Positions 40,901-62,544 of a DNA stretch of 64,000 nucleotides are shown here, in pieces. The position numbers and the translations under genes are program-made. Under the pieces are notes generated by a model. That model saw only the letters and a program-made list of their open reading frames with translations. It ran no database searches and was not told the origin of the DNA. Each line of letters begins with the position of its first letter. Within the stretch, counting starts at the first letter, position 1. The stretch comes from Takakia lepidozioides (taxonomy: Eukaryota > Plantae > Bryophyta). Location of the stretch: assembly GCA_030704615.1 (NCBI GenBank), contig CM060731.1, forward strand, positions 65,348,001 through 65,412,000, in the 5' to 3' direction.

Positions 40901-42800
40901 GAGTTATGTAAATTTTTGTAATGTCCATAGAGTTTACAGTGAGGGTTCCTCACTTCATTTTGTTGAATGTCAATGCAGACATTCAGTTGTTTTGCATTGT
41001 TTTTGCCTCTTACGAGGAATCTGGAGGCTTGATAAGCTGTGTTATGAGAAATCCAAAGTGAATGTCGTTGACGACATTCACTTCTGTGTCTGTATTATTC
41101 ACCAGCGACAATTTGAATTTACATGGATTGGGAGCTAAGTGATTGGTTCCTTGTTGGTATTTTTGTGAATGGCGTTGACGTCATTCACATACAGTGTTGT
41201 TCTTTGATTTTGCTTCATTTGAGGAATAATTAGGCTTGATTAAGAGTGTATTCACAAATCCAAAGTGAATGTCGTTGACGACATTCACTTCTATGTTTGT
41301 GTCATTCCAAAACGATAGTTTGCATTCACTTGGATTAGAGTGTATTTACAGTATCATTGAATGGAATGTTTTGAATGGCGTTGACGACATTCACATCCGG
41401 AGCAGTCGTGTGGTCCTGAAAGGTCCTTGGAGCAGTTCTCAGAGCCATTTCATTCTATGTTTTTTTTCATTCTGTTCTACTTGCATCTTACTCACTGAGC
41501 GCTTTGGTGGGTTGGGATTTATCTCCTATTTTTCAGGTACACGAAATATGTGCTTATGGAAGGAAATCACCTGAGCGGAATTCCAGACTATCTTGACATG
41601 TGGTCGGACCCTGCAAACGATCCAACCATGTATACTGCAGGGATATTGAAGGATTGGAGTCCTTCTCACTTCAGAGACTGTGGGTGGTACCTTGACTGCC
41701 CACCGGAGCACACGACTTTTCAAGAATAGCATATGAAATACTTGAACAATAACGCTGAGATGCTGGCGCCTTTGACTGACGAAGAGTACCAACGAAACAT
41801 AGCAACATTGGCTGCCAAGGAGCCCGATGCTCAGGGAACGCCGCAGAAGGGAAAGAAGGCGGGCCGTAAACCAAAAGACAAGGTTGTTGATGTCATAGCC
41901 ATCTCACCAGCAAAGCCAAAGGACAAAGGCAAGTCCAAAGAGAAGGAAAATGACAAGGGGAAGGAGAAAGAAAAGGAGATGGAGAGTGGGCATGACTTTA
42001 CTGCTGGAAGATATACCCGCACTGTTCAGTGCGTGTTCGATGCCAAGCCACACCCTTCCCGTTCTGATTCGGCATGAGAGATGAAAATTGTTAATGAGGG
42101 TTGGTTGTCGATGATGCAGAGTCGAAAGAGAGGATACACTGGGGTGCCTTCGCCTACCTGGGACAATATAATCTCATTCCTCAATCTGGTGAGAATTCCA
42201 GTTTCTTTCCTTTTTCTCTGAAAGTTTCGTTGGCAGTATTTCAGTCTCGTTCTTTGAAAACATTCTTGCCATCGTTCTTATAAAAAACATGTCTGTTGCA
42301 GGTGAGCACAGGTCCCACCTTCGCGGTGTGCAGAAAACATATGCGGCCTCATCCCAGTTATCACTGATCTCTGGAGACACTAATGTGCTTTTCCCATTTA
42401 TATCCGTCAGTGACACATAAAAAACTTGTGCACCAAGTCTATATCCATGCACAAAATCACTCTCCAATTTTGTTATGTCATGGGAAAGAGGTGGACGCAC
42501 AACAGGCATAGATATCATCCGGCACAGAGGGATGTCCAGACGCCCTCCAGATACGAGCATGTCCCTTATAACCTCTGAGAGTTTACCTTCTGGAATGACA
42601 TGAGTTCTTTCACCTTGTCAAGGTAGTGCACTTCAGATTCATCTGCTTCATCTGTATTCTCTGAGCTTTTTCCGGACTCGTCCCCATCTCCAGATCTTTT
42701 CCCCTCTGATCCTGTAGGCTTGGACCTCACAGTTTTCTGCACGATGCCATTCAATTCTGACTGAGTAATTTGCAAATAGTGAACGGCGGTAACGACCATC
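37975..42800 (-). pseudogene. Transposon accessory gene: ParB-like domain plus beta-class amino (N6-adenine/N4-cytosine) DNA methyltransferase; multi-exon; 39300-42347 inverted
   Basis: Minus strand: LDIPLCRMISMPVVRPP..GY..FYVS..NWDE. Plus strand (inverted part): CWKDANEEF..VWDGNHRLLAW..LLTAMHDVNK/STEKSHV. Minus strand again: ADIVILDIPDG..FLSDAGTLLFF..RGAKEKSPAFMQILLESCS..VVDLSVSTG/ATYHACKAGGRSLFGMEGD. Motif IV precedes motif I, as in beta-class enzymes. Gene ends are approximate. Confidence 0.7.
40731..41394. repeat. Array of seven 24-bp palindromes (GTGAATGTCGT-TG-ACGACATTCAC) at 95-121-bp spacing in an intron
   Basis: Copies start at 40731, 40852, 40963 (degenerate), 41058, 41165, 41265 and 41371. 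Confidence 0.9.
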
Positions 42801-42938
42801 ACTCTGTCTCCAAGAAACTCACTATGAATGGTGTGAAACAATTCAGCACTCATTCTTCAACTGTGTTCTGGAGACATCAGTAAACCAATTTACACTAGAT
42901 CTGCGATAGCAAGGTATAAACGTACGCGAGGAAGGAAG

Positions 42939-45376
42939 ATGGCTTCCTCTGAAGCGGAGTTCTTCTCTGACGACAAACCAGTGCCGTTCTCCCAGGAAGT
43001 CCTTGACAATGGATTTGCAATTGTTCTGGAACATGTCTTGGCTACCCGTTTTCAGCTGCAGAATGGCTCCATCTTTTTGGAGAAAGAGGTGTACGATCTT
43101 AAAGGGAAGTTGTTGAAATATTCTTTCCAAAACCGTGATGAGACGGCTCATATCAGCCAGTGGAGAGTGCGTCCTGGTCGATACAGAGTACTTGGAGAGC
43201 CTCGGCGAAAGTCCCTTGGGTCATATGTGACGCCCGGGACTGCTGCTTCGGTCGTTGAAGACAAGAGGGAGGTGGTGGTGAAAAAAGAACATACGTCCTC
43301 CACTCCAATCGTTGAGCTTTCAGATTCGTCCAATGATGACATAAGTGAAATTCCAAATCCAGTCCTTCCTACTGTGGTTGGAGAAGCTGATGAAGAAGAG
43401 ATTTGTAGTGTCATTCCAAAATTGCGGGCGATGGGAGGAATGGCTAGATTCAAAAGTGAGTTGCGGGGAATTGATTGGGAATCTTTGAAGCAGGTGCCTG
43501 TGAAGTTCTTGCTGGAGACTTTTGATGGCGATATCATATTCGAGCTGCCTCCTCCTCCGCGAGTTGGAGGTGTAACAATCATGATGCATGGAATGGACCA
43601 GAAACACGACGGGCACCCGTGGTGCAGAACAAAAACATCCAATATTCAGAATGATGACAAGCTTGTTTTCAGGAGGACAGTTTGCAATGGACACCTTAGG
43701 TGTGATAATTTGAATTGCAGACATTTTCTTCAGTCTGGGGTTCATAATCAAAGCGAATAGGAGGGTCTGGCGGAAAATCCATTTCAGCCTGGGACTGCCC
43801 CTCCACCGGCAAACACTTTTGTCTGCAAATTCTGCAAACTTGTGTCATCCTGCTTGGCGCTCTACGGAGCAAGAATGTACTATGTTGTCCACCGTTTGAA
43901 AACAATGACAAGAGCTTGTGTGCATTTCGGATTCCATAACCATCCTGTCTCGAAGGGGGATTACAGGGAGAGTGTTAAGACAGTATCGAGGTTGATTAAA
44001 CAGGAGTTCGGGAGAAACCCATCCGCAACAACATCTGCAATTGCTCTTGGCGCAAGCAAGTCCTTCTTGGAAAACCATATTTTGAGTGAAGGGGATTCTG
44101 TGGGGACTAAACTTGACGGTGCAGCATTGGACCTGGTCATGGATCATTTCTCCACTTTAAGTTCACCTAACATTCGGCATCAGATCAATGCATTGAGAAT
44201 GGGCTCTGGGATCAGAGGCTACATAGAGAACATTTTGGAATTGAAACGAGTGAGCAAGTACGATTACATCCAGGACAATGTATTCCCAGGTCAAGGTGCC
44301 ATCAAAGTTTTTCTTTTCAAAATGTCGACTGTTGGGGAGGGCAGTGGGGTTAGCCTCGTGAAGCGGATGCAGAAGACTGGGGACTTGCAGAACTGTTTTC
44401 TTATGTTTGATCATGTGAAACGAGTGAAGGATTGGACAACAATGGCTTGTCATGTCTACGATCCAGTGTACCAACGAGTTATGACAATTGCAGTTTGTGA
44501 CATGCAATCTGAGGATATGGAATCCCAGAAGCTCATGTGGAATTCCCTGATTTGTGTCATGGGCTGCCATCTCCAAATTTCGCAGGTTTCATGGCGGATA
44601 GTGCTCAAGCAAATTTCAATGCTGTTCGTATTGTCTTCGGATCGGGCGACCCAAAAGTGCCTATGCCAGGAAGAGAGCGTACATGTCTATTCCATTGGAC
44701 ACAATCTCTGGAAAAACATACAAAGTCGGACATCAAACCAGAGATGCAGACTCAGCATCGTAAATTTCTGCAAAGAGTACAAAGATGCTAGAACAATGAA
44801 GGAGGCGGACACTTTGTTCCAGACAATTCGTGCCTGGTGGTTCTCTTCTGGAGCTGCATCACTTGAGAGTATGAGAGCATTGGAAGATTGGCTGGCGTTT
44901 TGGCACTTCCGGTATAGACAGTGGGAAGCAACCATGCCATTGGTACGAGGCTTATATTTATTGCTTTATTCATACATTTGCTTTCCATTTTATTGTGTCC
45001 TCGCTTTCTTTATGTTGTTTTCTGTTCACTGTTTTGAAGTGTGGTTCTGCAGTTTGCAGAACATGTCCATTGAGGAAATGGCGGACATGCCATCTTGCAA
45101 TTTGGCAGAAACTGTGCACAACGCATGGTTGCAGCAGTCTGGGAAACGAGGTCGGGATTTGTATGTGGCAACAACAGACGATTTGATACGTGCCTTGCAA
45201 CAACAAACCCGATACCGTGATTTCTTACGAGGTGGGGTTGGTGGCAAGGGTCCGGACAAATGGGAGTTGATGTTGTGTGCTGCAAACAGATCTGGGGATC
45301 CAATCAAGATAGCACGGGCGGTGAGCATGTATGCCCAGGGAACGCCACTTGTTTCTAGAGTTCCACGTCTTGAAGG
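42939..45376 (+). pseudogene. MULE-type transposase, 5' part (GCM/WRKY-like Zn domain plus DDE core)
   Basis: DGHPW..CNGHLRC..C..CKFC..C..HFGFHNHP; FLMFDHVKR (D); FMADSAQANF (D); CLFHW (CxxH); CNLAETVHNAW (E). Contains a stop and frameshifts, and an intron at ~44943-45059. Confidence 0.8.
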
Positions 45377-45730
45377 TGTCAAGTTAAATAAGCACAGTGT
45401 GAAACTAACTAGAATAAAGCTAGTTATTTGTATTTAACACTTGGATTTAGGTCAAGTGTTAAATCAGGTGTCAAGTTTAGTTTGACACCTGAACCATCTT
45501 ATCTTCACGAGAGCATCAGTCGCGCAGCTCATCTCTCTCGAGTTGAGCCTGCGCGACCGAGCTCCTGCATTGTTGAGGACTGAGTGTGCTTATGATGGGA
45601 GTATAGGTTGTTGTGGGGTGGAGTCCCCATAGCTTGGGGTGCCCCTGGCTCGACTTCTATTTTAAAGAGTGATAGCGATGGATTTCATATTTCTTGTGTT
45701 GAGAGTGTGTGTCTTTTAGCTTGTTTATCA
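45377..45730 (+). repeat. Terminal repeat segment A1 (354 bp)
   Basis: Matches 57465-57818 with 5 substitutions. Confidence 0.95.
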
Positions 45731-45744
45731 CTCGAGAGAGATGA
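45731..45744 (+). promoter_or_regulatory. Self-priming primer-binding site
   Basis: CTCGAGAGAGATGA is the exact reverse complement of TCATCTCTCTCGAG at 45529-45542. No TGG tRNA-type PBS is present. Confidence 0.8.
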
Positions 45745-46825
45745 CTCTATCTAGTTTTCCAGTGCTAAGCTAGATATGATGTTTTTGTTTTTGTTAAGCA
45801 CTATTGTAATATAGCTTGGTCACAGGGATCAAAACAGGAGGCTTGAGATGTTGCTGCGATTTTTGTCAACCTGTGGTTATATCTAAGAGTGGGGTGTGTA
45901 GGCTGCGCTGCTGACTGCTTGGCTGGATGAGAGCCGTGCACCGCCATAGGCAGGGAAGGCGTCAGCTGATCTGAAGAATCGAGTTGATTCTGCTGCCCGC
46001 ACCAGCAAGAGGAATCTGGAGGATGGTACCGACCAGGCAGAGAATCTTGGCTCGACTATCCGACAGCAGGCTGAGAATCTGAAAGAAGCTGTCCTTGGCT
46101 CCACACCAAGGAGCGATGGCGAGGGAGCGAGGGAGCGATGGCGGTCTCGCTGCTGAGGCTGTGACGCTGCGCGCCCCCTCCCGACGCTGACAACGCCTAT
46201 GGTCCCTTCTTGCAGCCCGCGCTCTTCTCGATGAGTACTGACGCAGTCGGTGATCGAGCATTCCATCAGCTTGACCAGGGCGCATCTTATGGGGCTGTGT
46301 ATGCGGTCTCAGACACTATCAGAAGGGGAAGACAAAGAAGAGGACCTGGAATTGGAGCCAACAGAAGGTCAGCTTTCTTTCCTCCATTGAGAGAGCTACT
46401 CCGCTGGCCTCTTTGGGTGGGATTGACAATTAGTAGGGGTTATCAGACGATAGCCCACCGCCGCGAGCTTCTTTTGTGAACGTTCCGCACCTCCCAGAAG
46501 TGGTGGAAATTTGGCGGGACTTGATGAGCATAAGTCCTTCTCATCTTGCGCCAACTTGTTTGAAGTATGGGGAGTAGTTCGCACCAGACCCGATCTGAAT
46601 GAAGAAGCACTGTTCTGGTGTTAAGTTTAGGAACTATCCGTGGTAAATATGATGACATGGGAATGCAAGAGAACTGGAAGAAACGACGAAGGTGAGTAAG
46701 CTGGGTGCACGACTGAAAGTGGGAGTTACCTGCTGGAGATGAGAGAAGCTTAATCTGTTTTAGAAGTCCATGGACGCCAGCTTGAAGGTCTAACACTGGT
46801 ATTAAATACTGGTGTTGAACGGGCT

Positions 46826-47311
46826 GTGCAACTTGTGGCAGCCTCCTCTTTAGAAACACCAAAGCATACCAATATTTTGAAGCTTCTACTTGATGGAGCA
46901 GTGGCTGGAGCCACGGCAGGTGTAGTTGTGGAGACAGCCCTGTACCCGATTGACACCATAAAGACCCGCCTTCAGGCAGCGCGGTGTGGTGGGGGGATAG
47001 TGTTCAAGGGCCTATACTCAGGTCTTTCCGGCAATCTTGCTGGTGTTTTGCCGGCATCAGCTATATTTGTTGGAGTGTACGAACCCTTAAAGCGCAAGCT
47101 GCTGGAGATCTTCCGAGATCACCTCAGCTCTGTTGCACATCTGACAGCGGGAGCTGCAGGAGGTGCAGTAGCATCGCTGGTTCGGGTGCCCACTGAGGTA
47201 GTGAAGCAAAGGATGCAAACAGGGCAGTTTGCCTCAGCCTCTGGAGCAGTGCGAGGAATTGTGGCCAAGGAAGGTTTGCGGGGTCTCTACGCAGGATTTG
47301 GATCATTTCTG
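46826..47311 (+). pseudogene. SAMC: Captured intronless fragment of an S-adenosylmethionine carrier (mitochondrial carrier family, SAMC-like)
   Basis: AGATAGVVVETALYPIDTIKTRLQ..GLYSGLSGNLAGVLPASAIFVGVYEP..VRVPTEVVKQRMQTGQF..KEGLRGLYAGFGSFL closely matches plant SAMC1/2. Similarity ends before the third carrier repeat. Confidence 0.85.
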
Positions 47312-47548
47312 AATGGCAATCAGCTTGATGGAAGCAGATCTTGGATTGCCTTCTATCTCAACCGGGGTCTGCCCTGCTAGGTACTTACAACAGTCCCGGC
47401 GCACGTTCACCGTCAGATTACCGCAATGCAAGTCAATAGTCAATACGGATTAAGGAAATTCCATGTGGCCATGGAGGTCAAGACACATTGAGTTACTAGG
47501 TTGCAAGACACATTGCCGCCACATTGAAACCAGTGGGGCATTCTGCGG

Positions 47549-47977
47549 TCAGAGACTGCCGGTCGATTGGCGAAAGTGTAGGTGAACCCGTGTACCGTCT
47601 ACGGTGTCTTTTCTCTGTTGTCGCCACCTTGAAAAATCAGCGCGCTTGTTCCACAACACAGAGGGCATGTTACAATCAACAGCAAACGCAGGAACCTGTA
47701 GCTCATCGACATAGACAAACGCATCAGTGCCAAGGGCTTTCTCCCCCGTAACTAGAATGGGCCGGGGACCCGCAAGCTCCAGCACAAAGTCCAGTGCTTC
47801 CCGCTGGTAATCCTCCTCAGTGAGTTTATCGTTAGCCACCAAGGCCTCGAACAGACTGTGAGTGACCCCTCGCCTGTACATGGCGTCCGTAAACATGTCT
47901 TTCCTTCCCCTCTCTTGGTGCGCAAGCCTGCAAGCAATCACGGAATGTTGACACCACTCTCTCTCACAGCAAGACAC
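47549..47977 (-). CDS. Unknown 142-aa accessory ORF inside the retrotransposon
   Basis: ATG-initiated open frame with globular-looking composition; no recognised domain. Confidence 0.35.
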   Translation of the reverse strand: MSCCEREWCQHSVIACRLAHQERGRKDMFTDAMYRRGVTHSLFEALVANDKLTEEDYQREALDFVLELAGPRPILVTGEKALGTDAFVYVDELQVPAFAVDCNMPSVLWNKRADFSRWRQQRKDTVDGTRVHLHFRQSTGSL

Positions 47978-48504
47978 TATTGAGTGCCACAGTTCCCTCC
48001 CTCTCTCTCACTCACTCTCGGTATGCAGAAGACTGGAGCAAGGTGTGCTGTCACTAGAAAGTCACTGGTAACCAAGAGTTGTGGGGGGTGCATTTGTAAA
48101 CACAACTGAAATCCTAGGAATTATAGGGCATGTGGCCAGGTAACCTGGGAAACCATATAGAATGTAGGGAATCGGGAACCAGTTACCAGATAGTTTGGGT
48201 ATAACTTTAAATTTTTAAATTTGAAAACCTTAAAAAAAAAAAACAGGGCATTTTGATCTAATTTAAATGATTTAAAGCCAAATTGGTCATATCTTTGTCA
48301 AATGGACTCTGTTTGACCCAGTTTTTGGGGGGATAGCTGCAGAAAGGGGATATCTACCTATCTAGACCTGGTTTTTGTTTTTGGGACTCTGCTAGAAATC
48401 TATGGAATTTTTAGAGTGTGAGTGTGCCATGAAAGATCCACAATCCTGTTTCTAGAACCTGTTCTGGTCTACATGAGAGATAAATCTGGGGATGTACTCC
48501 TTGT

Positions 48505-49242
48505 ATGGCTGGGGGAAATGAGGACGTAATTGAAGGGCAGGTCTCATCTCTTAGCCTGTGCACACAAGGGGACAAGATTTATGTTTCCCAAGGAACTCAG
48601 ACTGATTTGAGTGGAGAACAGTTGGACGAGTTGATTGCATATTGGGAGTCAGGCATTAGCAGTAGACAACAAACTGCTGTAGTTGGCGTTGAGGGCCTCA
48701 ATATTGCCTTGGACAGTCAGAACTCTGTTGGAGCCAGCAGTTCTGCAGCTGTAGGTGACATACCAAAGTGGGTGAAAGCTAGGCTTGGAACACAGCCAAA
48801 GACAGCCCCGGGGACCAAGGTGTTCAGCCACAAGGCCGTGGTGTACTGGAGCAGAGGAGCAGGAGCTGCACAAGTTTGTGCAATCAGACATGGTTGCAGC
48901 CGGACACGCTCTGCACAAGGCAACCACGAGCGGGGGTTCATTAGCAATGACAAGTTTGTTTTGCTTGAAGGAGATGCAGTCATTCGCAATGAGGACACCC
49001 GCAACCGTCTCAAAGCTTTCGAGTTGAGAGACTATCAGACCCTACCTTTGTTTTCTTTAGCGTTCAGTGAGCGGGAGATAGCAGAGTATTGCTTTGTCTC
49101 TACCTGGCAGAAAGAGGAGGAGGGTTGGTTAGAGCGAGCTACTGTAGCTTGGGACAAGGTTAGTGGCAGATTTTTGGACATAGATATACCTCCTATATCT
49201 TACCATCATGTAGAGCGAGGTACTTTGAGAGAAGTCTGGTAG
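48505..49242 (+). CDS. Unknown 245-aa accessory ORF upstream of gag
   Basis: ATG-initiated uninterrupted ORF; no recognised domain. Confidence 0.45.
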   Translation: MAGGNEDVIEGQVSSLSLCTQGDKIYVSQGTQTDLSGEQLDELIAYWESGISSRQQTAVVGVEGLNIALDSQNSVGASSSAAVGDIPKWVKARLGTQPKTAPGTKVFSHKAVVYWSRGAGAAQVCAIRHGCSRTRSAQGNHERGFISNDKFVLLEGDAVIRNEDTRNRLKAFELRDYQTLPLFSLAFSEREIAEYCFVSTWQKEEEGWLERATVAWDKVSGRFLDIDIPPISYHHVERGTLREVW

Positions 49243-49773
49243 TTGATAGCATAGATCAGGATTAGATCTTGCTTGGTCGGCCTTCTATTCTTCCCCTCCA
49301 TCTCTGTACTATTTTCATTACCTTGTACTTGTAGTTGCCAAAGCCTCTCTTGGTGGAGGCCAGTCAGTCCGGGGTTTTGGGCTGGGCTATTCTGCAGGAT
49401 TAGCATTGCAGCTGGATTTTGGTGTGGGGGTGTTGATATTTGATTTCTTGTGTTTGGATCCCCCCCAACACCTGCATGCTTGACTGTGCGCCATGTTGGT
49501 TTTGTGTGGGCGCTTGCTTTCATAGGGATTAGGCCGGATTTGATCACCGGTCAATCCTAGAGTATGCTGTCGGTGGTGAGGCTGGAGTGATGACCAGCAA
49601 GACCACCAGTGTTTCTTCTATGGTGAGGCTGGGTTGATGACCAGCCAACCATAGGAGTTCTTGCGGTGGATGCAGGTGCAGGTGCCCTGAGCCATTGGGA
49701 TATGACCCTTAAACTGCAACATGTGCCCACCCGTGTCACTATTAGAATTAGTACTAGAGCCCTATAGTGTCAC

Positions 49774-52400
49774 GTGGGGGAGGTGCCCATTGTGAGTGTC
49801 ATCACGGAGTTACCCAAGGGTTTTGATGGGAGTACGGCTACAAGCAGTAGCAGTGAGAGTGGGTTCACTAGACGAGGTATTCGTTTCAGACCACCTTCAC
49901 CTCCACCCTCAACTAGTGCAGAGTCAGACACAGACTTGGAGGCTTCATCAACATGTGTGCAGTTTCATTCGCCATTGTTGTGGGACGACATGGAAGAGAT
50001 GTATGGAGCTACCAAGGGGCCTCGTAGGTACTCTGGAGCTGTGGGCACAATCGAGTTGGATGACTTTATCCAGGAGTTTGACAGCTGGTGTGATTTGCAG
50101 CAGATGCGCAATCCACAGCTCTTCACCCCATTCATGGCGTGGAAGGGACTGTTCCAGCATTTGGAAGGCCCGCCTATGGACGATTACCACGAGTTCAGGC
50201 GAGGACATGAAGCAGAGATTGAGGAGTGGAGGATGTATTGGTCACCTGACTACGTCTCCATTACTCGAGGCACGACGCGACCAGTAGCTGCATCAGTACC
50301 AATATCTCCCACTGCCAGCACTAGTAGTGGAACAAGTAGTGCCGGTACTTCTGCAGGTGGTACCAGTTCAAAAGGTGCTACTACTCCTCCTGCCACGACT
50401 ACAACACATGTGCCTAGATTCCACCCGGTGGTGGAGTTCTTCCAGGAGTTGCGGAGGAAGTACGGATAGAGAAGCTGCGAAGTTTGCAAGACTTCCAGCG
50501 CAAACCCAATGAGAGCCTGCGAGAGGCATACACTCGTATAAGGCGCTTGATAAGTGTGACCCAAGGGGTTACTGAAGCTCAGGCAATCCAGTTCTGGTAT
50601 GGCATTTTGGAGAAGGAGCTCAGGAGAAGGGTGCGGGATGCAACCCTGTTACAAGCAGCCCAACCCACATTAGCAGATGTGTTTCTGCTGGCTGAGCGGA
50701 TTGAGCTCAACATGGTGGAGGAACGAGTTGTTACCATTGGATTTGGCAAGGACATGCCTGCACGAGGTGCAGCTGCCAGCCCACAGGCACAAGGGACTGC
50801 CCAACAGCGTGGTCAGGGGGGCAAGGTTTAACCCAAGTTCCATGGAGCTTACATGGGACCTCAGATGTAGAGGCCCATGGCATCTTTTGCAGGCCAACAG
50901 CAACCAGGGGTGATATGACATGTGGAGGACCCCATGTCAAGTGAGATTGCCCAGAGAGTGGCAGAAGGCCGGCACAAGCACAGCCTGCACAGTTGCAGTG
51001 TGGGCATTGTGGCAAGTATGGGCATGGAGATGCCCAGTGTTATGACTTGCATCCTGAGTTGCGCCCAGGCCAGTTCCAAGAGAACAATGGTGGCCGGGGG
51101 CGAGGTGGACCAGCCCAGAGAGGACGAGGTGGTCGGGCACGAGGTGCAGGCCAAGGGCAAGCTCAACATGGCCAAGGACGCGGAGGTCAGGGTATTGACC
51201 AAGGCATGGCCAACCGGCTTCAGCAGCTAGAGCAGAGCCTCGCTGCCATGGCTACAGCTCAGGCGGTACCGGCTCCCAGGCGGGATGGTCCACCTCCTGC
51301 GCCTGAGGGAGGAGATATGGGAGGCATGGGATTCATGTGCGGAGCAGCACTACCACTAGTGCAGGTGGAGTCTGCTGCAGCCGTGACTCGAGGAGCAGCA
51401 CGAGTTCCTGAGCCACGAGGTGCAAAGGTGGAATTGGATCCACAGCGTGGGGAGGCAAGCCGTCAGGCGAGGCTTCCTCAGTCATTCACATTGGCGGAGA
51501 CTGTGTCGACGCCATCCATGGCACCTAGTTCTCGTCCGACTGTTACCGAGGCGGAGGTTACTATGCCATTGGGGAGAGCTACACGTGCAGCACTAACACC
51601 TGCTACCAAGGCTAGTGCAGCCGGTGTGTTATTGGGGGCAGCCACCTCTGTGTGTCAAGCCCCACTGTTTTCAGCAACCATGATTGCGACGCCGGGGGTA
51701 AGGCCAGCTGCAGTGTTCAGACTAGCAGCAACACTCTGTGAGAGTGGGGAGGTCACTTCATCTTCTGCGGAGTTACTGGAAGGTGTAGTGGCAGAGGGAT
51801 CCTCATATTTGAGGGTCAAGACTGCCACGGCTGCGCCATGGCAAGCTGCAGCTGCCAGGTTGACGGAGCTGCCAGCTAGGCCAGCCTTTGAGCGCGCCAT
51901 GGTGACACCTGGAGTTGTCTTGTTAGACAACCAGGATGGCATTTTCTCTTTGAGTGGACCGGCAGGCAAGAAGTACCGGCCACTGCGGGTCTTGTTGGAC
52001 TCGGGAGCTCAGCCACTGATGTTGGGCAGAGCTGCTATTGCAGGTTTGGGCCTCATGCAGGCGGATATGGAGTCTTGTCCTTTCCAGATACAGACATCTC
52101 TGGGAGGATCAGAGCAGGCTTGGGGCATGACACGGCGTGAGTTGGCCATTGGACTACAAGCAGATCATCTTGTAGATGGCTCAGTGATGCGAGCCAAGGC
52201 CATTGTAACAGACGCGGTCTCTTACGATGTCCTCGTTGGTGGGGTAGTGTTATATCCCATGGGCTTCACCCTGGACTTTTGGGATGAGTCAACATCCTAC
52301 AGGCCTGGATGGCAGTCAGGGGATGGTCGTCGTGCACAGCTCCCTATGACATTCATTGGGGGTATTGCGGCTGCCCAACGGGGCAAGATGCCAACACTAG
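49774..52400 (+). pseudogene. Gag (capsid, zinc knuckle) and aspartic protease
   Basis: LDDFIQEFDSWC..; QDFQRKPNESLREAYTRIRRL; CGHCGKYGHGDAQC (CX2CX4HX4C); VLLDSGA. Contains stops and frameshifts. Confidence 0.85.
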
Positions 52401-52708
52401 CCGCCTTTACAGCTGTAGTTAGTTGGCCTGGAGAGTTGCTGGAAGGCAATGCCCATGCAGAGGATGTGCCACCTCCAGCAGAGCAGGATGACATGCATGG
52501 TATGGCGGAGTTGCCTGCCATGGTTGCTCACACTCCATTGTGGGGTACGAGCAACGATTTGCAGCAGGTTGCTGATCGACGGGTGCAACAAGCCTGGGTA
52601 GAGGCTTTTGTACCGTCAGGAGAAGAGGAGAGTGCGGGTATTGCACCAGGACCACCTCAGTTGTCACCATTGGATACCACACCTATTGTGTGGCAGTATA
52701 TGGATGAA

Positions 52709-53660
52709 GGCATTTGCCTTCTGGACTTGTTTGGCGGGATCGGCACCGGATTGGCTGCTGTGCTACAGGCAGGTGTGCGGGTAAGGCGTTACCTGTATGT
52801 GGAGAGGGATGAGACTGCACGACGCGTCTCACTGCGCCATGTGGCTCAGTTGGTATAGCAGTACCCTGACTTGTTGCCTGTGTCTGCAGTTCGTGGATAC
52901 CAACAAGCCTTGCCAGCAGACATTTCCTTGTTGGGGGCGCAGGATTTGGAGCAGGTTGGCTCCATTGATGTGATAGTGGCAGGTTGGCCCTGCCAAGGGC
53001 ATTCATCAGCCAGGCATGGCAATGGATTGCGAGACTCGAGGACGGGTCTGTTTTGGGAGATGGTGCGGGTTTTGCGCCACTTGCAGCTTCATCAAGCTGT
53101 ATCTCCAGCATACACCTTGGAGAATGTGCCATTGATGGGTGATTCTCGGGCCATGGTGATGGCCAGTGTGCATCAAGTCCGGTCGTGGCTTGGGTCAGCA
53201 GTGTTGCTGGATGCAGCTGCAGTGGGGTCACGGGCTCATCGTCCACGGCTTTGGTGGACTAACTTGATGCCACCCGCACTGCTCAAGTGTGCATTTGATG
53301 GGGTGCAGCGGCCAGCACACCTCACCGTGGATGGCATTTTGGACACAGGGAGGCAGTCTCAACGTGTGAGACACGATGACCGTTTGCCTTTGGCAGTGGT
53401 CAACAAGGTGGGTCAACCACGAGCAACATTACCTACACTGCTCAGCTTCCCAGAATCCCATGCTTTTCGGGATGGTGGACCTGGCCTCTTGTGGGATAGC
53501 CAGTTGCAACAGTTAGTGGAGCCTAATGCCGACGAGCGAGAGCGGGCTATGGGATTTTCCACTGGGACCACGGCGGTGCCTTCTCTTTCTGAGGCATCAC
53601 GTCGTCAGGTGTTGGGGCAAGCAATGGATCTCAATTGCTTGACCTGGATTATCAGCTTGG
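52709..53660 (+). pseudogene. DNMT3-like C5 cytosine DNA methyltransferase domain within the polyprotein
   Basis: Motif I LLDLFGGIGTG; II YVERD; IV AGWPCQGHS; VI LENV; VIII AHRPRLWWTNL; IX ERERAMGF; X RRQVLGQA. Same frame as PR and RT, with one TAG at 52856-52858. Confidence 0.92.
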
Positions 53661-54009
53661 CTATGGCTGAGCAATGTAGAGTGCGGAGTGCACTTCCCTT
53701 GACGGTCTCTCTGCCTACCGAGACGGTACAGGCGGCAAGTGGGGGCGAGCCGGTGAGGACCACGGGGTGTAGACATCCATGGCACACGTGGGAGGTGCTC
53801 GAGGTTCAGAGGGAGTTGGCAGCCAAGGCAGCTGTGATGGATGAGGTTGGGGATTCTTCTCGGGATGAGGAGGTTCTCAATGATGAGATGATGGGGCAGG
53901 ATGAGGCCTTATCATTGACTGAGCAGGAAGGGAGTACTGCTCAAGAGGTTGCAGCATAGCAACCACGAGACGCGTCCTCTACCTCTAAGCCCACTGGACT
54001 TAAGGTTGC

Positions 54010-56940
54010 AGTTACGGAGGACAATTGGGAGCCTGACATTGGACCCATTGTCACCGGAGGAGAGAGACGACGTATACGGTGGTTCCTGAGGGCTTACAGG
54101 AATTGCTTTGCCTTCAGTTTGAAGGACTTGGGAGCACTGAAGGGTCAAGAGATCCGTATTGAGTTGGCCACTGACACGCCAATCTTTCGGAGACCCTATA
54201 GATACAGTGACATAGAGAGGTCTTTGATTCAGATGAGGACTCAAGATCTCTAGGAGGCAGGTTTGGTGGAGCTCTCTGGTGGAGAGTATGCTTCAGCCAC
54301 AGTGATGCCAGCCAAGAAGGATGTCTATGGCAATTGGACGGAGAGACGTATGTGCGGTGATTACCGGCCTGTAAATCGTCAGACCAAGTCCGATAGGTAT
54401 GCCATGCCGACACCAGAGGAGATCTTTGATGCCATTGGGCATTCCAAGGTTTTTAGCACGTTGGATTTACGATCCGGATATCACCAGTTGCCGATCAAGG
54501 AGGCGGATAAGCAAAAGACGGCATTCTGGGGGATCAATGAGCACGGGAAGGATTGCCTATACCAGTGGCGGTTCTTACCATTTGGGCTTAAAAACGCTCC
54601 TGCTGAGTCTCAAAGAGTCATGGACAGGATTCTAGCAGGGGTGGAGTTTGCTCGGTGCTACATAGATGACATCATCATCTTTAGTGCTACGGTGGAGGAG
54701 CATGAGAGACACCTTCAGGGGGTATTTGAGCGCTTGAGGGATAGTCCTAGCTCAAGGCCTTGTGGTCAGTTGAGGCAAGAAGTAGAGGAAGCGCTCCATG
54801 AAGTGGGAGACTAGCCAGATTGAGTATCTGGGTCACATGATATATCCTGGAGGATTGGGGGTACAGCAGACTAAGGTAGAGTCCATTGCACAGGTTCCAC
54901 GCCCCACGGATGTGAGCCGAGTTTGAGCTTTCATGGGGTTAGAAAACTATTACAGACGGTTTGTTAAGGGATTTAGTGCCATTGCAAAGGCTCTAACAAA
55001 GCTGACCAAGGTGGACCAGGAGTGGCAGTGGAAAGATGAGCAAGAACAAGCTTTTCAAGAGCTCAAGGTGAGGTTGACCTCGGTGCCCATCTTGAGACGA
55101 CCTATCAGGGGGCGTCCTTTCAGCTGCATACAGATTGGAGCATGCTGGGGTTTGGAGCGGTGCTCACACAGGTGGATGATGAGGGAAGAGAGTTCGTAGT
55201 GGCTTATGTTAGCCGCTCGAACAATGCTGCAGAGTCTGAGTATAGCTCATATGAGGGAGAATGCTTAGCTGCAGTGTGGGCCGTGGCACACTTCAGGTGC
55301 TATCTATACGGCAATCTCTTCACCCTTGTCACGGATCACCAACCACTCAAGTGGTTGATGGAGTCAGACAAGCTTACGGGGAAGCTTGCACGGTGGGCAC
55401 TCATCCTTCAAGAGTATGACTTTCAGGTGGTGCATCGACCGGGTTTGGTCAATCACAATGCAGATGGGTTGAGTCACAATCCATGCACGAGCCAACAGGA
55501 TGATACTGGAGCTCGGGGGCATGGTGAGACGGACGAGGAGATGGTGCCGGATGGCATGCATCTGCATTTCTGTGTATCTTGGCAGTGGAAGGCCAGGTTG
55601 GACCTGCAACAGGGATGACTATAGATCAAGTGTCTGAGGACCCTGAGGCCAGCAATGAGCAAGGTGGCGCCAAAGATATACATGAGGATTCAGTTGTGTT
55701 GGACTACCTCCGCACTGGAGACACTGCAGCCACTGTGACTACCAAGGAGAGGGATCGGATCCTACAACGAGCCAAGAGGTTCAAGTGGGAGGGGACACAC
55801 CTGCTCCGAGTGTGGGAGGATGGTCGAGTGAGGATTGTGCCTCACCCAACACAGCGGGCACGGTTAGTGCGGCATGCCCACGAGGAGTTGGGGCATTTTG
55901 GGGTGCGACGCACCCATAGCCTACTGCAGGGGCAGTATTGGTGGCGTGGTATGCACACAGTGGTGCAACAATTTGTGGCTAGGTGCATGGTGTGTGACAG
56001 GGTGCGTGCTTCATTCAATGCCCCTACTCCACAATTGCACCCTCTTCCGATCATGGGATTGGGCTACAGGTGGAGTCTTGACTTCGCAGGGCCGTTGCCA
56101 CTGACCATGCGTCACAACAAGTACGTGTTGGTGATGGTGGAGCACTTCTCCAAATGGATTGAGTTGGTTCCATTGCCTGATAAGGCTAGTGAGGGAGCTG
56201 CGTATGCATTCTTGGATTGTGTGCTTAGCCGATTCGGTGCTCCAGCTGAGGTACTCACGAACCAAGGGAGAGAGTTCTTGGGGGAGTTTCAGGCTTTGTG
56301 TGACAAGGCCTTGATAGACCACCGCACCACTTCTCGGGATCATCCTGAGGCCGATGGCTTGGCAGAGAGAGTTGTTCAGACAGTAAAGAGGGGTTTGCGC
56401 AAGTATGGCTTGCAGAAGGGACACCTAGGAGATTGGGACCTTCAGTTACCCTGGTTAGCCATGGGCTACAGGTTCAGCAAGCAAGCATCATTTGCCTCCT
56501 TCTCACCATACTTTCTTCTCTTTGGCCGAGAGCCGGATTTGCCTATATCCATTCGCAGAGAAGCTGCTACAGTTCTTAATCTTTACGATCCGGACGTGTG
56601 GGCACATGCATGTGAGCAGCGTGCAGAGTTGTTCAAGAAAGTCATGCCTATGGCTTTTGAGAACCTTGCCATTGCACAACACCGTGATACGTTGAGATAT
56701 GCTACCATACGTGGTGGGGGCTATCGTCCTAGGGTTCGGAGATTCAACCCTGGTGACTATGTCTATCTGCAGCAGACTGCTCCTATGACCTTGGATGTGA
56801 CTGCAGGACGTGTTATTTTGAGGGTTCGAGAGGTCTTGCCCTCAGGCGTCTTGGTCTTGGAGGGTCGGGATGGCATAACTTGGAAGGACCATGTGCGTAA
56901 TTGTGCGCTATGTCACCTTCCGAAGTCGATGCAGGGATGA
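54010..56940 (+). pseudogene. Reverse transcriptase, RNase H and DDE integrase
   Basis: RMCGDYRPVN, LDLRSGYHQ, PFGLKNAP, YIDD; YSSYEGECLAAVWAV..TDHQPL; HEELGH..CMVC (HHCC), SLDFAG, LTNQGREF (second catalytic D is N), GLAER. Confidence 0.92.
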
Positions 56941-56973
56941 CCCAAACCTGGCAGTGGTATCTGCAAGTTTGAG

Positions 56974-57115
56974 GTGCATGTTGTGTGGGTCTGCTAAAGG
57001 GGCAGCCACCATGCTGGTGTGTGATCGATGCTCTAGAGGTTGGCATATGGGATGCTTGACTCCACCTCTTGAGATGGTTACGGATGGGGATTGGTTATGT
57101 CCACAATGCATTGGA
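56974..57115 (+). other. PHD finger downstream of the integrase (frameshifted in this copy)
   Basis: CMLC..MLVCDRCSRGWHMGCLTPPL..GDWLCPQC (C4HC3). Confidence 0.9.
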
Positions 57116-57366
57116 TAGTGGGAGTGGATACAACCATGGAAGGCTAACAAGCAACGCAAGGCCCAGCTACAGGAGACCTTGAATACACGAGGTCCTAGCT
57201 CAAGTTCACAGATTGCAAGACGGTGACTAACGATGGGGCTACTCTTGTACCCGGCCTCTTGGTCAATAGAGTTTGAGTACAATAAGGATAGTGATAGAGG
57301 ACTTAGTACGGCTGTGGCTATTACATCTGGTAGCTATCTGGAGTTAGAATGACCTATCCACCAGCT

Positions 57367-57376
57367 AGGGGGCCGA
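57367..57376 (+). promoter_or_regulatory. Polypurine-tract-like plus-strand primer
   Basis: AGGGGGCCGA lies directly before repeat B1 (TTGTGGCAG). Confidence 0.55.
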
Positions 57377-57904
57377 TTGTGGCAGACTACTTTATTGTGC
57401 ATATATGTGTGGTGTGGTTTGGACAACGATGTAGTTGTGTAGCGATACATATGCGCACGACAGCTGTCAAGTTAAATAAGCACAATGTGAAACTAACTAG
57501 AATAAAGCTAGTTATTTGTATTTAACACTTGGATTTAGGTCAAGTGTTAAATCAGGTGTCAAGTTTAGTTTGACACCTGAACCGTCTTATCTTCACGAGA
57601 GCGTCAGTCGCGCAGCTCATCTCTCTCGAGTTGAGCCTGCGCGATCGAGCTCCTGCATCGTTGAGGACTGAGTGTGCTTATGATGGGAGTATAGGTTGTT
57701 GTGGGGTGGAGTCCCCATAGCTTGGGGTGCCCCTGGCTCGACTTCTATTTTAAAGAGTGATAGCGATGGATTTCATATTTCTTGTGTTGAGAGTGTGTGT
57801 CTTTTAGCTTGTTTATCATTGTGGCAGACTACTTTATTGTGCATATATGTGTGGTGTGGTTTGGACAGCGATGTAGTTGTGTAGCGATACGTATGCGCAC
57901 GACA
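57377..57904 (+). repeat. 3' repeat block: B1 (57377-57462), GC, A2 (57465-57818), B2 (57819-57904)
   Basis: B1 and B2 are 86 bp with 2 substitutions. The B1/A2 junction is the palindrome GACAGCTGTC. Confidence 0.95.
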
Positions 57905-57908
57905 AAGG

Positions 57909-58940
57909 GGAGGAGAGATTCGGCTCCTGTAAGAGGAAATTGAACACTCCACCTGGTTTGGATTCAGATTCCCACAGGGCAAACCGTGATAATTTATGGA
58001 AGCCTCGTGTTCCCCTGCATGACAGCTCCATGTCCGGAACCTCCATTGTGGAGGAACCTCCAACACGACGGCAAGCTCCAGCATCAAACAGTGCCACTGA
58101 AATGGTGCAAGAGAGAATTAACCCCCTTGATGTGCTTGAGTCCGCATGCCCCGACCACGTTTGGCACATAGAACGCACAAGTGTAGGGTCTCGTGTGAAA
58201 TGTACAGCGATCAGGGCAACTAATTTTGAGAAGTGCACTTCATCTATATCCAGAGGTGGTGCCCGAACTCTTGCTCCGACTTTCACGGGCTTGATGCGTC
58301 CATACGGTCAACCAGAAGCCAAGAACCACAAATTCTGGTTCTGCGCAGATGATTGTGCCAGATGTGTGCATGGAACTGTGCGTCCTTCCGTAGTGATGAA
58401 GCCATCTCCTCCAACCGTTTGGCCCGTGAAGGTGGGAACACATCTCAGCTTTCACGAGATTGAAATGCTGGAGGAGGTAGGTTTTTCCCTTGCGAGACAA
58501 CCCCAACTCCATGCATGTGCTACTACTTCTGCATCCTCCCGGGTCCCCCCGGAAAATCCTGACTTGTGGCCAACCAAACGAGATGGAAAGCTCGTTCGGC
58601 GTTTCCCTCCAACCGCTGAACACTTTGGCAAAGTGGAGTCCGCAAGAATGCTCCAAGCTCGTGTTGGAAGCACCACGGAAGTACCACATCCAGGATATGG
58701 TTGGGTATTCACAATCTTCACTTCCACATCTGCTGTTCATGACAGGACCTACGACATCACGGTTTCCAATTTCCCCAATTGCACATGTCCTGATTTTGTG
58801 AATATGCTATCAACCAGTTTGGGCAAGAGAGGTAAATTCATACCCTGCAAACATTTGTATTTCATATTTTTGAAGAGGATGGTTTGCGATCCCAAACGTG
58901 ACAACTTCATTCACCAGGCCACTATGAGTTTCAACGAGGT
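57909..58940 (+). pseudogene. MULE-type transposase, 3' part with SWIM zinc finger
   Basis: Removing 45377-57904 and one AAGG restores the frame (RLEG|EERFGSCKRK). SWIM: YDITVSNFPNCTCPDF..PCKHLYFIF. Confidence 0.8.
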
Positions 58941-58946
58941 CGATAC

Positions 58947-59142
58947 CAGTGTTGGGCGGTTACCCGCCTGGGCCCCGGGTAACCGCCGGTTCCGGTTCCG
59001 GTTATGTGGAACCGGACCCGCCTGTGCAGAACCGGAACCGGAACCGGAACCAGGTTCCAGCTATGACCACATGTGTGGGAACCGGGTTTGGGGTTTAGGG
59101 TTCCGGTTCCGGTTCCGGTTCCACCCGTGGGCTGTAGCCCTA
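58947..59142. mobile_element. hAT-like terminal remnant with GAACCG/CGGTTC subterminal repeats
   Basis: Starts CAGTGTTGGG and ends AGCCCTA (reverse complement TAGGGCT), with clusters of ccggtt/aaccgg. No TSD. Sits where the transposase and tauD are both cut. Confidence 0.5.
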
Positions 59143-61667
59143 AGTGTCTCTACGTGCGCGGTTCATGATGCGGCGATGCGGAAGGTAATCGGCCACGCCG
59201 TAGTGCTGCAATATGCGGTTGTCCCAGAAGGCCACATCATTGGCTTGCCATCTCCATCTCACTGTGAATTCGGGCTTTGTAGCATGCGCAAACAGAAATC
59301 CCAGCAATGCATCGCTCTCGTCCTTTTGCAGATCCACAATGCGGGTCAGGAATCCTTGGCTCAGGAAGAGAGCCTTGCGCCCACTGTCAGGATGAGTGCG
59401 GATGAGAGGGTGCACCACTGGCGGGTGCTCTTTCACAGCTTCCTCCCACAGCGCCTTGGGGTCCCCTCGACCTTCGTAGTGGTACCGGGGCTGCGAGAAT
59501 GACTTGACGAAGCTATGCTCTGCTTTTAGCCCAAGAAGAAATTGTTGCAATGGCTTTGAGAGCGCCTCGAAGGCTGCAATGCCGATTGCATCGCAGGCAG
59601 GTGATCTCTTGTTCTTCGTAGTGCTGCAACACTCTGTCAAGCACAGTTTTGTGGAAGTCCGTTGTCTTCTAATCTGTCTGCTTCTTTATGCCGTCTTCAT
59701 GGGCTCCCTTTGTGCCCTCTCCTTTACTGGTGCCTCTCGTTCTCTCTTTGTTTGTCTTCTTCTTTTACCTTTGCGCGGATCCGCTGGGGAACGAGCTGGG
59801 AACAGCTCGATGTATAACTCATTAGAGTTATGTTGTCAAACTCATGGCAACTGCCTTCTTGAATTGTGACGCTGATCGCGCGCCCTGAAGCCAAACATGA
59901 ACTACCAATGTGGCTCAGAGATAGCAATTTCCGCCTTTGCCCCTATGATTGTAATATCTTGGGTGAGACGAGTGCTTTGGAGTTTTAGAATGCCCTCTCC
60001 TTCCAGCTTATTTTGTTACTCAGTATAGTTATATGCAGAAGTGAAAGACATTGCAATTACATTTTTGAATTCCTACGTTGATCAAGCGCCCTGAAGCGCC
60101 CGCCCTGAAGTTCGATACAGCCAATTCCCCTCGTGTCCCTACGATTGTAGCATCTTCGGCGAGCTTTGTATTTCCAGGTAGTTCTGTAATATATTTGTAT
60201 GCAGCCAAGAAGTAATACACTTTGCAAATACCTTCTCAAATTTTTACCGTTTGATCAAGTGCCTGAAGCCAAACATGAACTGCACATAGTGGCTCAGATA
60301 TAGTGAAGTCTCCCTCTGTCCGATTGGAACAACTTGGGTGTGACAGGAAATGTGCCTCCTTGTTCCGAGCTCTGGATTTTCCTGTGCCCTCTCCTTTCTA
60401 GATATATGTTTTCTTCTCTTTCTCTTCTGTGATCTATTGTGTATTCCAAGATAGCCAATATTTCATAGAGGTCTTCCATTACAGGATCAGAAATGCTTGG
60501 CAGCATATCTACAAAAGTCCTTGACTCTTAGACAATCCCTTGATTATCAGTTGTTTTTCAGCTGCTTGTTGAGGGCCCCACTCCCTTTCTTGTTTCATTC
60601 TTCTCTAGTCCCTTCAGTTCTTTGGGATTTCAATAGAAAGTATCATTTCATTTCTCTTTCTTTCAAATATATCTCGCCTCAGGAAGCTTTTACATCTCTG
60701 TCAATCAGTCTTTCAGCAGCCTTGGCTTCTATTGGGGGGTTCTACAAGAAGCAGCTGGCATCTGTAAATCTTAAGTTGGCCTTCTTTGTCTATTGTATGA
60801 GCTCTTTACCTGCACATGATTGTGTATACGTGAGAGCTAGAAAGAAAATGAGCAGGTGAAAGGGGATGATGCATGCTCGTCCCCATCCTTATAACTGGTA
60901 GCGTTTAAGCTTGTAGTGATGTGTGGCAAGCATGTGTTGTTTCTTGCACAGAGAACCTGTCTTTCTCACCTCCTATGTAGTTTCCTGGATGGCCTAGACC
61001 ACAATGTCAACCTCTTAATTAGTGGAATTCTGGTGCTTATCAGGGCAAGAAATTCTCACATCAGTATGCTCAGATCTGAAACAGTTGCAAAGATGGTATG
61101 GCTGCTGCAGAGATCGGGGATAGGGTCGACAACAGCACCTAAGAGGAGGCTCTGTCTGCAAGTTTGAACAGAACCCAGGACTGGAGTTGAATGTGCAAAG
61201 TGTCACAGGTGAAATGGGAATTGCCGGGGATCACTGAAATTGCTCTTTAAGTTCATCCATCTGCACTTCAAGAACGAGGGAAACAGGGTATCACCACCCA
61301 CGGGAGGTATGAGCTTGCCCGCTCAGGATTGTGCCCAAGGGCGGTGTCTCAATGAAAGTGACGTCGGTGTGCCACTTATCATTGTCTGGGGGTGATCACC
61401 GTCAGAATCCAGTACCATGATTTCCTCTAACTCGGGGCCTAAGTTTGGGTAGATTGGATGTATGTGCAAATCACCGAAACGCTTGGCGAAGGCGTGCTGT
61501 TGGTGTGGAGTGATCGGCTGGTTGCGGAAGAAGAAGAGCACCTGATACTGAAGTAAGGCGTCGTTGATGGCTGCCTGCTCTGCATCCTGCAACGGTTCCG
61601 CCAGAGAAATGCCTTCGACCACGGCGCCGATGGCCCTCGTGAGTGGAGTGATTTGCAGAGTACTCAT
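59143..61667 (-). pseudogene. tauD: Bacterial-type alpha-ketoglutarate-dependent taurine/sulfonate dioxygenase, split by a ~1.7-kb insertion (~59590-61280)
   Basis: ITPLTRAIGA..QVLFF..RFGDLHIHPIYP..(frameshift)PDNDKWHTDVTFIETPP..GGDTL // [44 protein letters not shown]. HxD..H and Arg ligands are retained. Confidence 0.9.
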
Positions 61668-62544
61668 GGATCCAGTAAACTTGTTGTTACTGAAGCTCTG
61701 ACAGTAAGGTGTAAGCCTTCAAGGCTGTAGTGTCCAATTGCTCTTGGGCACCTGCATCATAACACGAAAGATCAATGCGCTTACCCATGTGCTGTTCAGA
61801 ACGAGGGCCCTAGGAGTAATTTGCTTATCTAGAGCGAGCAGCAAGACAAGTGTATTGACTCAGACAGCGCAAGTGCAGAATGGCCCACATCGAGTCACCT
61901 GGACAATATATTGGAGCAGCGAAGAAATAGACCAACAACTGCTGCTGCTCCCCGAAGATCAAATCGGTTGTACAGTGAGATAGATTCTGCAGGTTTGCAC
62001 CTCGCGCTGTAGTTGGTCAACAAATTTGCCACTTTGAAATTGTGGGGCTAAAATCTCTCCAAGGGAAGGTCAACGCGTACACCATACTTCTACCTCAATT
62101 GCAGCGCCATCATCAGCACTTTCCATAGCGGAAATCAAAACTTGCTCTCTTGGTACCACTCGAACATCATTCTCGTATAGCTGAATATCAAACATGCAAT
62201 TAGACCCTGGCAGTCCCACGACCATCGACTGAGACTATTTGCTTTGTGCTAGCTACATAATCTAGATGAATTCAGACCAACCGAGAAGAATTAACCCAGA
62301 AGAGGTCAGCTCTCTGCCCCTCTCTTGTACGGTGCTTAGTTGTACAATCTGGATGACAGCCAGGCTAGCTTTGGATGACCAATTTGTACTTTTGCAGCAC
62401 ATAATGGATAGCAAGTTGGTTGGGGCGTAATGACAGTAGGTTGCTTCCTTGCCTCAGTGTCTATTGCCATGATCAATGTTGTTCATCGTGCAACAGAGAT
62501 TTATACAGAACCTCGGCGCCTGACTGTTCCTGTATATGTGGCAG

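Follow-up and report, generated by a model that had tools for sequence, protein, structure and literature searches.

A DNMT3-type methyltransferase domain upstream of a conserved stop codon in a gypsy-like, split-repeat retrotransposon of Takakia lepidozioides

Why transposons carry an enzyme that silences them has been a standing question since 2018, when KnitGypsy-Dnmt3 of Klebsormidium nitens was described by de Mendoza et al. 2018 (PMC5890265). According to the sections of that study devoted to these elements, the Klebsormidium domain, the sole Gypsy case before the present one, displayed no activity in yeast, a result which its authors call inconclusive, and de novo CG activity has been demonstrated only for SymbioDIRS-Dnmt3 of Symbiodinium. 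The same question is raised in a land plant by the 64,000-nucleotide stretch of Takakia lepidozioides DNA analysed here (hereafter the window, in which all coordinates are given), where a cytosine methyltransferase domain is located between the protease and the reverse transcriptase (RT) of a retrotransposon. What the domain is, to which kind of element it belongs and how it would be expressed are addressed below.

The domain contains motifs I, II, IV (PC), VI (ENV), VIII and X in non-rearranged order (Table 1), which confirms the full motif set, including catalytic PC and ENV, claimed in the preliminary description. Its classification as DNMT3-like was likewise upheld, since single-sequence, profile and fold comparisons all placed DNMT3A closest. 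Pfam assigned the domain to DNA_methylase (E 7e-12), the nearest solved structure by single sequence was DNMT3A (E 9e-10), and a 41-sequence profile compared with solved structures gave 1.5e-23 for DNMT3A, 2.8e-11 for the best DRM-type structure and 1.4e-7 for HaeIII, the best bacterial one. Foldseek with an AlphaFold model of the domain (pLDDT 93.6, pTM 0.92) returned DNMT3A as the closest fold (E 1e-19, TM 0.72/0.83), and the ESM Atlas yielded PF00145 and nothing more. Sequence and fold both place the domain nearer to DNMT3 than to enzymes of DRM, DNMT2 or bacterial type, and it is nearly certain that the element-borne methyltransferase represents a real DNMT3-type domain. A DRM identity was rejected, as the motif order is linear and DRM2 matches residues 3-128 only. 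The domain is also no host plant DNMT3 gene: it is intronless, sits inside an element and is devoid of a C-terminal DUF3444, which accompanies the methyltransferase in the DNMT3 of plant hosts (PMC6453930); neither PWWP, ADD nor DUF3444 was found beside it by Pfam. Fold and motif order are shared with animal DNMT3A/B and with the host DNMT3 of seed-free plants (PpDNMT3a/b, as presented in PMC6453930), whereas identity to DNMT3A is about 21% and the domain described here is intronless and element-borne. Among 195 aligned domains, conservation of the catalytic residues ranges from 184 to 194; the catalytic Cys is present in 190, the ENV Glu in 194, and the two Arg in 191 and 188, respectively. 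Judging by these conserved residues, the enzyme of the family is likely to be catalytically active.

The preliminary description had named absence of the domain from other copies and a dN/dS near 1 as the observations that would speak against its reading; on both points the outcome supported it. The domain was present in at least 80 related loci (the best 80 of 150 related metagenome stretches, kept for comparison) as well as in sets of 63 and 257 proteins. Homologues with 60-74% identity were found in Marchantia polymorpha, M. paleacea, Calypogeia fissa and Riccia sorocarpa, those of Sphagnum showed 48-68% identity, and relatives occur also in Closterium; the methyltransferase belongs to the element family and occurs in land plants, namely in liverworts and Sphagnum. 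No Klebsormidium-named protein was among the fetched homologues. At 50% identity, 250 clusters matched the DNMT clade with E below 1e-30, and a search of viral contigs gave one weak locus. In a tree of 195 domains, all of them element-borne and none from host DNMT3, DRM or Klebsormidium, the window domain groups with the liverwort homologues (support 1.0). Protease-bearing members of the enclosing clade (0.99) mostly end after the DNMT, and the sister group with Closterium (P0320) includes stop-less polyproteins. A large further group (77 of the 195 domains) carries the DNMT between RNase H and integrase, and its named members are chlorophyte (Scenedesmus P0316/P0446, Cymbomonas P0433); in streptophyte elements the DNMT precedes the RT. 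The same split of two DNMT positions was seen in an RT tree of 59 sequences, taken from DNMT-bearing elements only. As deep nodes are weak (0.31-0.86) and the trees are midpoint-rooted, no order is claimed for the two positions.

Comparison of the window with 39 loci gave pN 0.217 and pS 0.731 for the DNMT, and dN/dS between lineages, at saturated synonymous sites, had a median of 0.096 (range 0.07-0.23), far below 1. For the RT, pN/pS was 0.181/0.695 (29 loci) and dN/dS 0.105, and the corresponding pN/pS values were 0.301/0.745 for the protease (24 loci) and 0.122/0.722 for the integrase (19 loci). As judged from these substitution ratios, the DNMT domain is under purifying selection like the RT. 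Among the loci, dN/dS fell from 0.87 in the closest pairs to 0.26 in the most distant ones, as expected from decay after insertion laid over selection in the active line; 3 of 40 distinct DNMT segments of the loci set are free of stops. CpG depletion of the element (0.45-0.52) was no stronger than that of the rest of the window (0.48), and neither its CpG nor its CHG ratio hinted at special methylation.

Table 1. Coordinates of the element and its parts in the 64-kb window
Feature	Position	Strand	Remarks
Left 4-bp target-site duplication AAGG	45373-45376	+	Identical letters at 57905-57908
Repeat A1, 5' end of element	45377-45730	+	Starts TGTC; 354 nt
Low-copy captured insert, host-derived pieces	45743-48254	+	Not in other copies
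252-codon open frame, high-copy 5' region	48484-49242	+	No assigned family
gag: capsid region and zinc knuckles	49990-51230	+	About 55% identity to N-termini of Marchantia P0003/P0004
Aspartic protease	51911-52360	+	DSG at 51998; 56-59% identity to Marchantia homologues
DNMT3-type C5 methyltransferase domain	52700-53680	+	Motifs in linear order I-X, 52724-53629
Methyltransferase motifs			DLFGGIG 52724, YVERD 52796, GWPCQG 52982, ENV 53120, HRPRLWW 53237, GQAMD 53615
Conserved in-frame stop TAG CAA CCA, end of ORF1	53957-53965	+	Readthrough-type context
Predicted extended RNA stem 3' of stop	53970-54073	+	Arms near 53970-53985 and 54056-54073
Reverse transcriptase and RNase H	54023-55480	+	Pfam RVT_1 9.5e-23, RT_RNaseH 9e-36
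DDE integrase (H2C2, rve) and C-terminal PHD finger	55702-57118	+	PHD at 56975-57115; Pfam Integrase_H2C2 5e-16, rve 2.4e-12, PHD 8.5e-12
G-run stretch before B1, polypurine-tract-like	57350-57377	+	Conserved
3' end	57378-57904	+	B1 57378-57462, GC, A2 57465-57818, B2 57820-57904
Right target-site duplication AAGG	57905-57908	+	Pairs with 45373-45376

The element that houses the domain spans 45377-57904 between AAGG duplications, and the joint of the empty site (45372 to 57905, with 4 letters fitting both sides) was recovered in four of four runs. The domain order GAG-PR-RT-RH-INT with a DDE integrase, the TG...CA ends and the 4-bp duplication are those of Ty3/gypsy elements. Membership of the DIRS/PAT/Ngaro group was rejected, as the element frames scanned with Pfam contained an rve integrase and no tyrosine recombinase, the mark of that group. 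The protease match (Pfam gag-asp_proteas, E 0.0055) lies below the curated cut-off, and the 252-codon frame of the 5' region had no match in Pfam, the ESM Atlas, the 81-locus set (moss-type loci included) or the fetched proteins. Similarity to relatives reaches about 40 codons beyond the first gag Met in the 5' direction (49768-49990), and the true gag start may consequently be upstream or non-AUG.

The copy in the window is heavily damaged. Three-frame translation showed gag to be broken by a stop and frameshifts, RT-RNase H contains stops, a frameshift and a disrupted stretch near 54750-54815, and the integrase end is broken as well. One frame (50945-54814) connects a zinc knuckle (50999), the protease LLDSGAQ (51992), the methyltransferase motifs and the RT YIDD (54659), and is interrupted by stops at 52856, 53957, 54251 and 54812. 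The frame is thus not open, a copy-specific stop (52856-52858) lying inside the domain upstream of the catalytic Cys. In run X1, 45,636 of 48,072 of the summed contig depth (95%), a quantity that is not equal to copy number, reads another letter at this stop, and so does all contig depth of runs X5, X9 and X7. The window copy is a dead element, unable to make the enzyme. The suggested fusion of protease, DNMT and RT holds in so far as the three share one frame and the DNMT is joined to the protease; since a conserved stop at 53957 follows the DNMT and cuts off the RT, there is no continuous fusion of all three.

The element is gypsy-like by its enzymes but no canonical LTR element: only A stands at the 5' end and B-A-B or B alone at the 3' end, and a primer site is missing (no TGG primer-binding site in the 20 nt after A1). 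The ends are split repeats, A...B-A-B, and not ordinary LTRs. B2 ends in GACA, and the B1/A2 junction reads as the palindrome GACA-GC-TGTC. A1 and A2 differ at 5 of 354 nt and B1 and B2 at 2 of 85, which indicates a young insertion despite the many coding breaks; this young but broken copy was probably mobilised by other copies. The layout B-GC-A-B recurs in loci L001, L018, L057 and L059, and 4-bp target duplications (CATA, TCTC, TGTG, TGTT) flank four other insertions. In the moss-type family, the A and B sequences are unrelated to those of the window, while layout, junction and the G-run before B1 are alike; CCACCAGCTAGGGGG is common to the window and the moss-type loci though their A and B repeats do not align. 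Among 12 loci with B right after the G-run, in which two pairs probably represent one insertion each, 8 stop there and 4 continue into A. Two of the insertions (L041:3395-13281 and L071:2507-11240) are complete in the form A-coding-B, with 4-bp duplications and without terminal repeat. The internal GACA-GC-TGTC junction would template both ends and may double as integrase site; alternatively, the short A...B form could originate from recombination between B copies.

The stop between DNMT and RT deserves closer attention. Both the DNMT end and the RT start are held by 54 loci and the window, which gave 52 distinct junction segments, and in these the junction codon is TAG in 33, TAA in 16, TAT in 2 and GAG in 1. 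A stop is therefore found in 49 of the 52, with CAA as the next codon in 50. In a codon-column count (reference L001, 63 loci after duplicate removal, 659 columns), the junction column was a stop in 45 of 46 copies, the next-highest column in 13 of 45 (29%) and the mean column in 1.0%; in the least decayed copies, the linker holds this one stop only. Because the 80 loci belong mostly to one family, these figures represent about three lineages and not 52 events: the major moss-type family, whose locus L001 is, by eye, nearly identical to the Sphagnum fallax model P0044 over linker and RT start, a minor family with six aligned copies, and the window. The DNMT-RT linkers of the three lineages have 342, 279 and 306 nt, all frame-keeping.

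Protein homologues point to the same boundary. Protease and DNMT to its end are contained in 36 of 63 longer homologous proteins, 30 of which terminate 13-181 residues past the DNMT, including Marchantia P0003/P0004 and Calypogeia P0002; for Marchantia, this junction evidence consists of protein ends, not DNA. The remaining 6 run on past the junction, five of them being NCBI gene models, and each of the four such models inspected is without a different part of the linker. In the contigs, no difference at 53957-53959 was among the 40 best-supported ones listed, which suggests that the host's own copies have retained the stop. The sister clades represented by P0046, P0312 and P0477 have no stop and encode DNMT and RT in one continuous ORF; bulk expression is thus not needed for retention of the domain.

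The context of the stop resembles the plant-virus readthrough motif UAG-CAR-YYA (PMC3542737). The window (GCA-TAG-CAA-CCA) fits this motif, as do two minor-family copies (CAATTA, CAATCA); strict CARYYA occurs in only 3 of 52 junctions, and 42 of 52 read CAACCC (major family, CAA-CCC-ATG). Compared with type I and stem-assisted type II readthrough as outlined in PMC3542737, the window shares A-UAG-CAA-CCA, and a predicted stem begins about 10 nt 3' of the stop, like known stimulators. The major moss-type family, in contrast, departs from the type I (tobamovirus) context in reading CAA-CCC, and the site is placed here after protease and DNMT, not after gag.

In the window, the stem gave a z of -3.68 (0 of 200 shuffles), compared with -0.34, -0.53 and +0.86 for three control stretches, and a stretch mostly 5' of the stop folds comparably (z -3.38). 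Over 54 loci, the median z was -1.07 versus 0.04 in the control, with values below -2 in 11 of 54 versus 2 of 54. In the alignment, 85.5% of cells are paired (39-69% in slid versions), and two-sided changes were seen in 9 of 14 stem pairs, mostly between the major and the minor family. As the stem was drawn from the same sequences and RNAalifold recovers a 6-pair core only (-3.08 kcal/mol), it is to be regarded as a prediction.

On these grounds, we propose that ORF1, comprising Gag, protease and DNMT3, would end at the conserved stop and that readthrough at a low rate would yield RT-RNase H-integrase-PHD; among the ways past the stop, we infer that this one is somewhat favoured. Owing to its position upstream of the stop, the DNMT would be made together with Gag and in excess over RT under readthrough or reinitiation alike. 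The methyltransferase is predicted to be produced and packaged at capsid levels, the protease would presumably release the DNMT domain, and the enzyme would then methylate the element's own new DNA before integration. To the whole mechanism (leaky stop, DNMT3 packaged at capsid levels, methylation of the element's own cDNA) we assign a probability of roughly 0.55, and for cDNA as the DNMT substrate the odds seem about even. The idea of cDNA methylation was already offered by de Mendoza et al. 2018 (PMC5890265).

The first step of this proposal has two competitors. ORF1 might simply end at the stop, with pol translated on its own from an ATG just 3' of it, either through reinitiation or on a shorter RNA. 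An in-frame ATG three codons past the stop in 45 of 46 major-family copies, and five codons past it in the six aligned minor-family copies, would suit such a start; the window, however, has no ATG there, its next in-frame Met lying well within the N-terminal region of the RT, and the CAA that follows the stop is conserved across the three lineages. Separately made Pol would, in addition, need its own route into the particle. We consider reinitiation unlikely; if it were true, DNMT output would likewise match that of Gag. The stop could also reside in an intron spliced from some transcripts, as in Ogre, given that both the major family and the window show a pyrimidine run and a subsequent AG 20-30 nt past the stop and that NCBI gene models skip the stop. 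Those models, however, cut at differing places, the minor family has no pyrimidine run and yet keeps the pairing, and three lineages maintain one in-frame stop and frame-keeping linkers, neither of which an intron need keep. Moreover, in run X7, which is RNA only by guess, a contig of 2,173 nt crosses 53585-55783 without a joint at the stop. Splicing hence appears quite improbable.

Regarding the role of the enzyme, an active DNMT could act on the insertion site, on host chromatin or on element RNA, possibly as a self-limiting device. Substrates other than cDNA were raised in PMC5890265, and the PHD finger on the integrase points to contact with chromatin; against this, expression within Gag would put the domain where cDNA is made, and de novo CG methylation of DNA is known from the related SymbioDIRS-Dnmt3 domains (PMC5890265), which leaves the proposition doubtful next to methylation of the element's own cDNA. 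That the domain is a recently captured host DNMT3 passenger, a nested insertion or an assembly chimera might be thought from the captured host mRNA pieces of this very copy and from its broken DNMT domain. The domain is nevertheless found at the same position in liverworts, peat moss and Closterium, evolves under purifying selection like the RT as far as substitution ratios indicate, and is accompanied by no DUF3444 detectable with Pfam; DNMT and RT trees divide the elements alike, and contigs cross both domain and junction. An accidental origin of this sort is extremely improbable.

Among known systems, KnitGypsy-Dnmt3 is the closest by description. As characterized in the relevant sections of PMC5890265, it has DIRS-like repeats and a Ka/Ks below 0.2. 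In common with the window family, its DNMT3 is intronless and non-rearranged, forms part of a Gypsy-type polyprotein, retains the catalytic residues and is under purifying selection, and the DIRS-like repeat layout is found here too. KnitGypsy-Dnmt3 differs in that its DNMT lies within the Pol ORF, whereas here the DNMT ends a Gag-PR-DNMT frame at a stop; the land-plant host and the additional repeat-less A...B form are further differences, both made out by comparison of descriptions. SymbioDIRS-Dnmt3 is alike in being a retrotransposon DNMT3 with A-coding-B-A-B repeats and, as described in the same source, uses a tyrosine recombinase in contrast to the DDE integrase, TG...CA ends and 4-bp duplications observed here. 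Ogre (Tat lineage, PMC6317226) has a similar two-part organisation with a break after the protease, but according to that description the spacer is an intron with a mean of 274 bp, while here a single in-frame stop is found with the DNMT before it. Troyka (PMC12440569) has a Gypsy-like domain order and was rejected as a candidate, being described with CG...CG ends, 3-bp duplications and an occurrence in animals only, unlike the TG...CA ends and 4-bp duplication of the window. Gypsy-7a_cRei of Chlamydomonas encodes a PHD finger and has a left LTR that falls short by a few bases, and the passage describing it mentions no DNMT.

Retrotransposon DNMT3s of streptophytes are mentioned in PMC12344493 (citing de Mendoza et al. 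2018) and, under the name "streptophyte Gypsy-DNMT3", in bioRxiv 10.64898/2026.05.21.726589, and the trees of both may include bryophyte copies. Searches of open-access text turned up no paper dealing with copies in land plants, with the conserved stop or with the short A...B form. The family is a variant of the published Gypsy-DNMT3 kind, set apart by the stop after the methyltransferase.

The family brings the DNMT question into the genetic model Marchantia and into peat mosses, and as Marchantia holds stop-free Gag-PR-DNMT frames, the enzyme is testable there. The conserved stop predicts enzyme at Gag level, a measurable claim on its dose and place of action. In a wider and only tentative view, an old green-plant integrase lineage might have dropped the scheme of LTR and tRNA primer, with ends rebuilt from the internal B-GC-A junction and two integration forms, and in land plants a leaky stop might load DNMT3 at the capsid ratio, so that new copies would arrive methylated. 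As LTR-finding pipelines demand two like LTRs (PMC6317226), an abundant split-repeat class would be missed by them. Since the element proteins are annotated as host 'DNA methyltransferases', bryophyte DNMT counts can be inflated.

Several minor observations concern the captured insert and the surroundings of the element. Depth over the insert is lower by 2-3 orders of magnitude, and one contig connects 45742 with 48255. The insert carries a partial, intronless fragment of S-adenosylmethionine carrier 1 (SAMC1, about 46800-47311; best identity 83%, Marchantia paleacea), and since this fragment is partial and missing from other copies, the presence of a SAM carrier piece inside a SAM-using element is probably a coincidence. 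Together with the placement in the DNMT tree, the identity of the fragment points to a seed-free land-plant host, probably a bryophyte. One contig of DNA run X1 lacks 46364-46623, and the GT..AG ends of the skipped segment give the impression of an intron lost from a sister copy via an RNA stage. Pfam analysis of 57 other window frames returned only pieces of glutaredoxin, lipase 3 and TauD, in keeping with minus-strand host gene pieces at 15659-16264, 31428-32261 and 59143-61718 (glutaredoxin, class 3 lipase and TauD-type dioxygenase). The element interrupts a high-copy repeat (42837-45372 and 57909-59502) which contains a long frame as well as a weak match to the SWIM zinc finger (E 0.006) and is perhaps a Mutator-like DNA transposon. 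At 40661-41422, three or four copies of a repeat of about 206 nt are found, each with a palindromic core.
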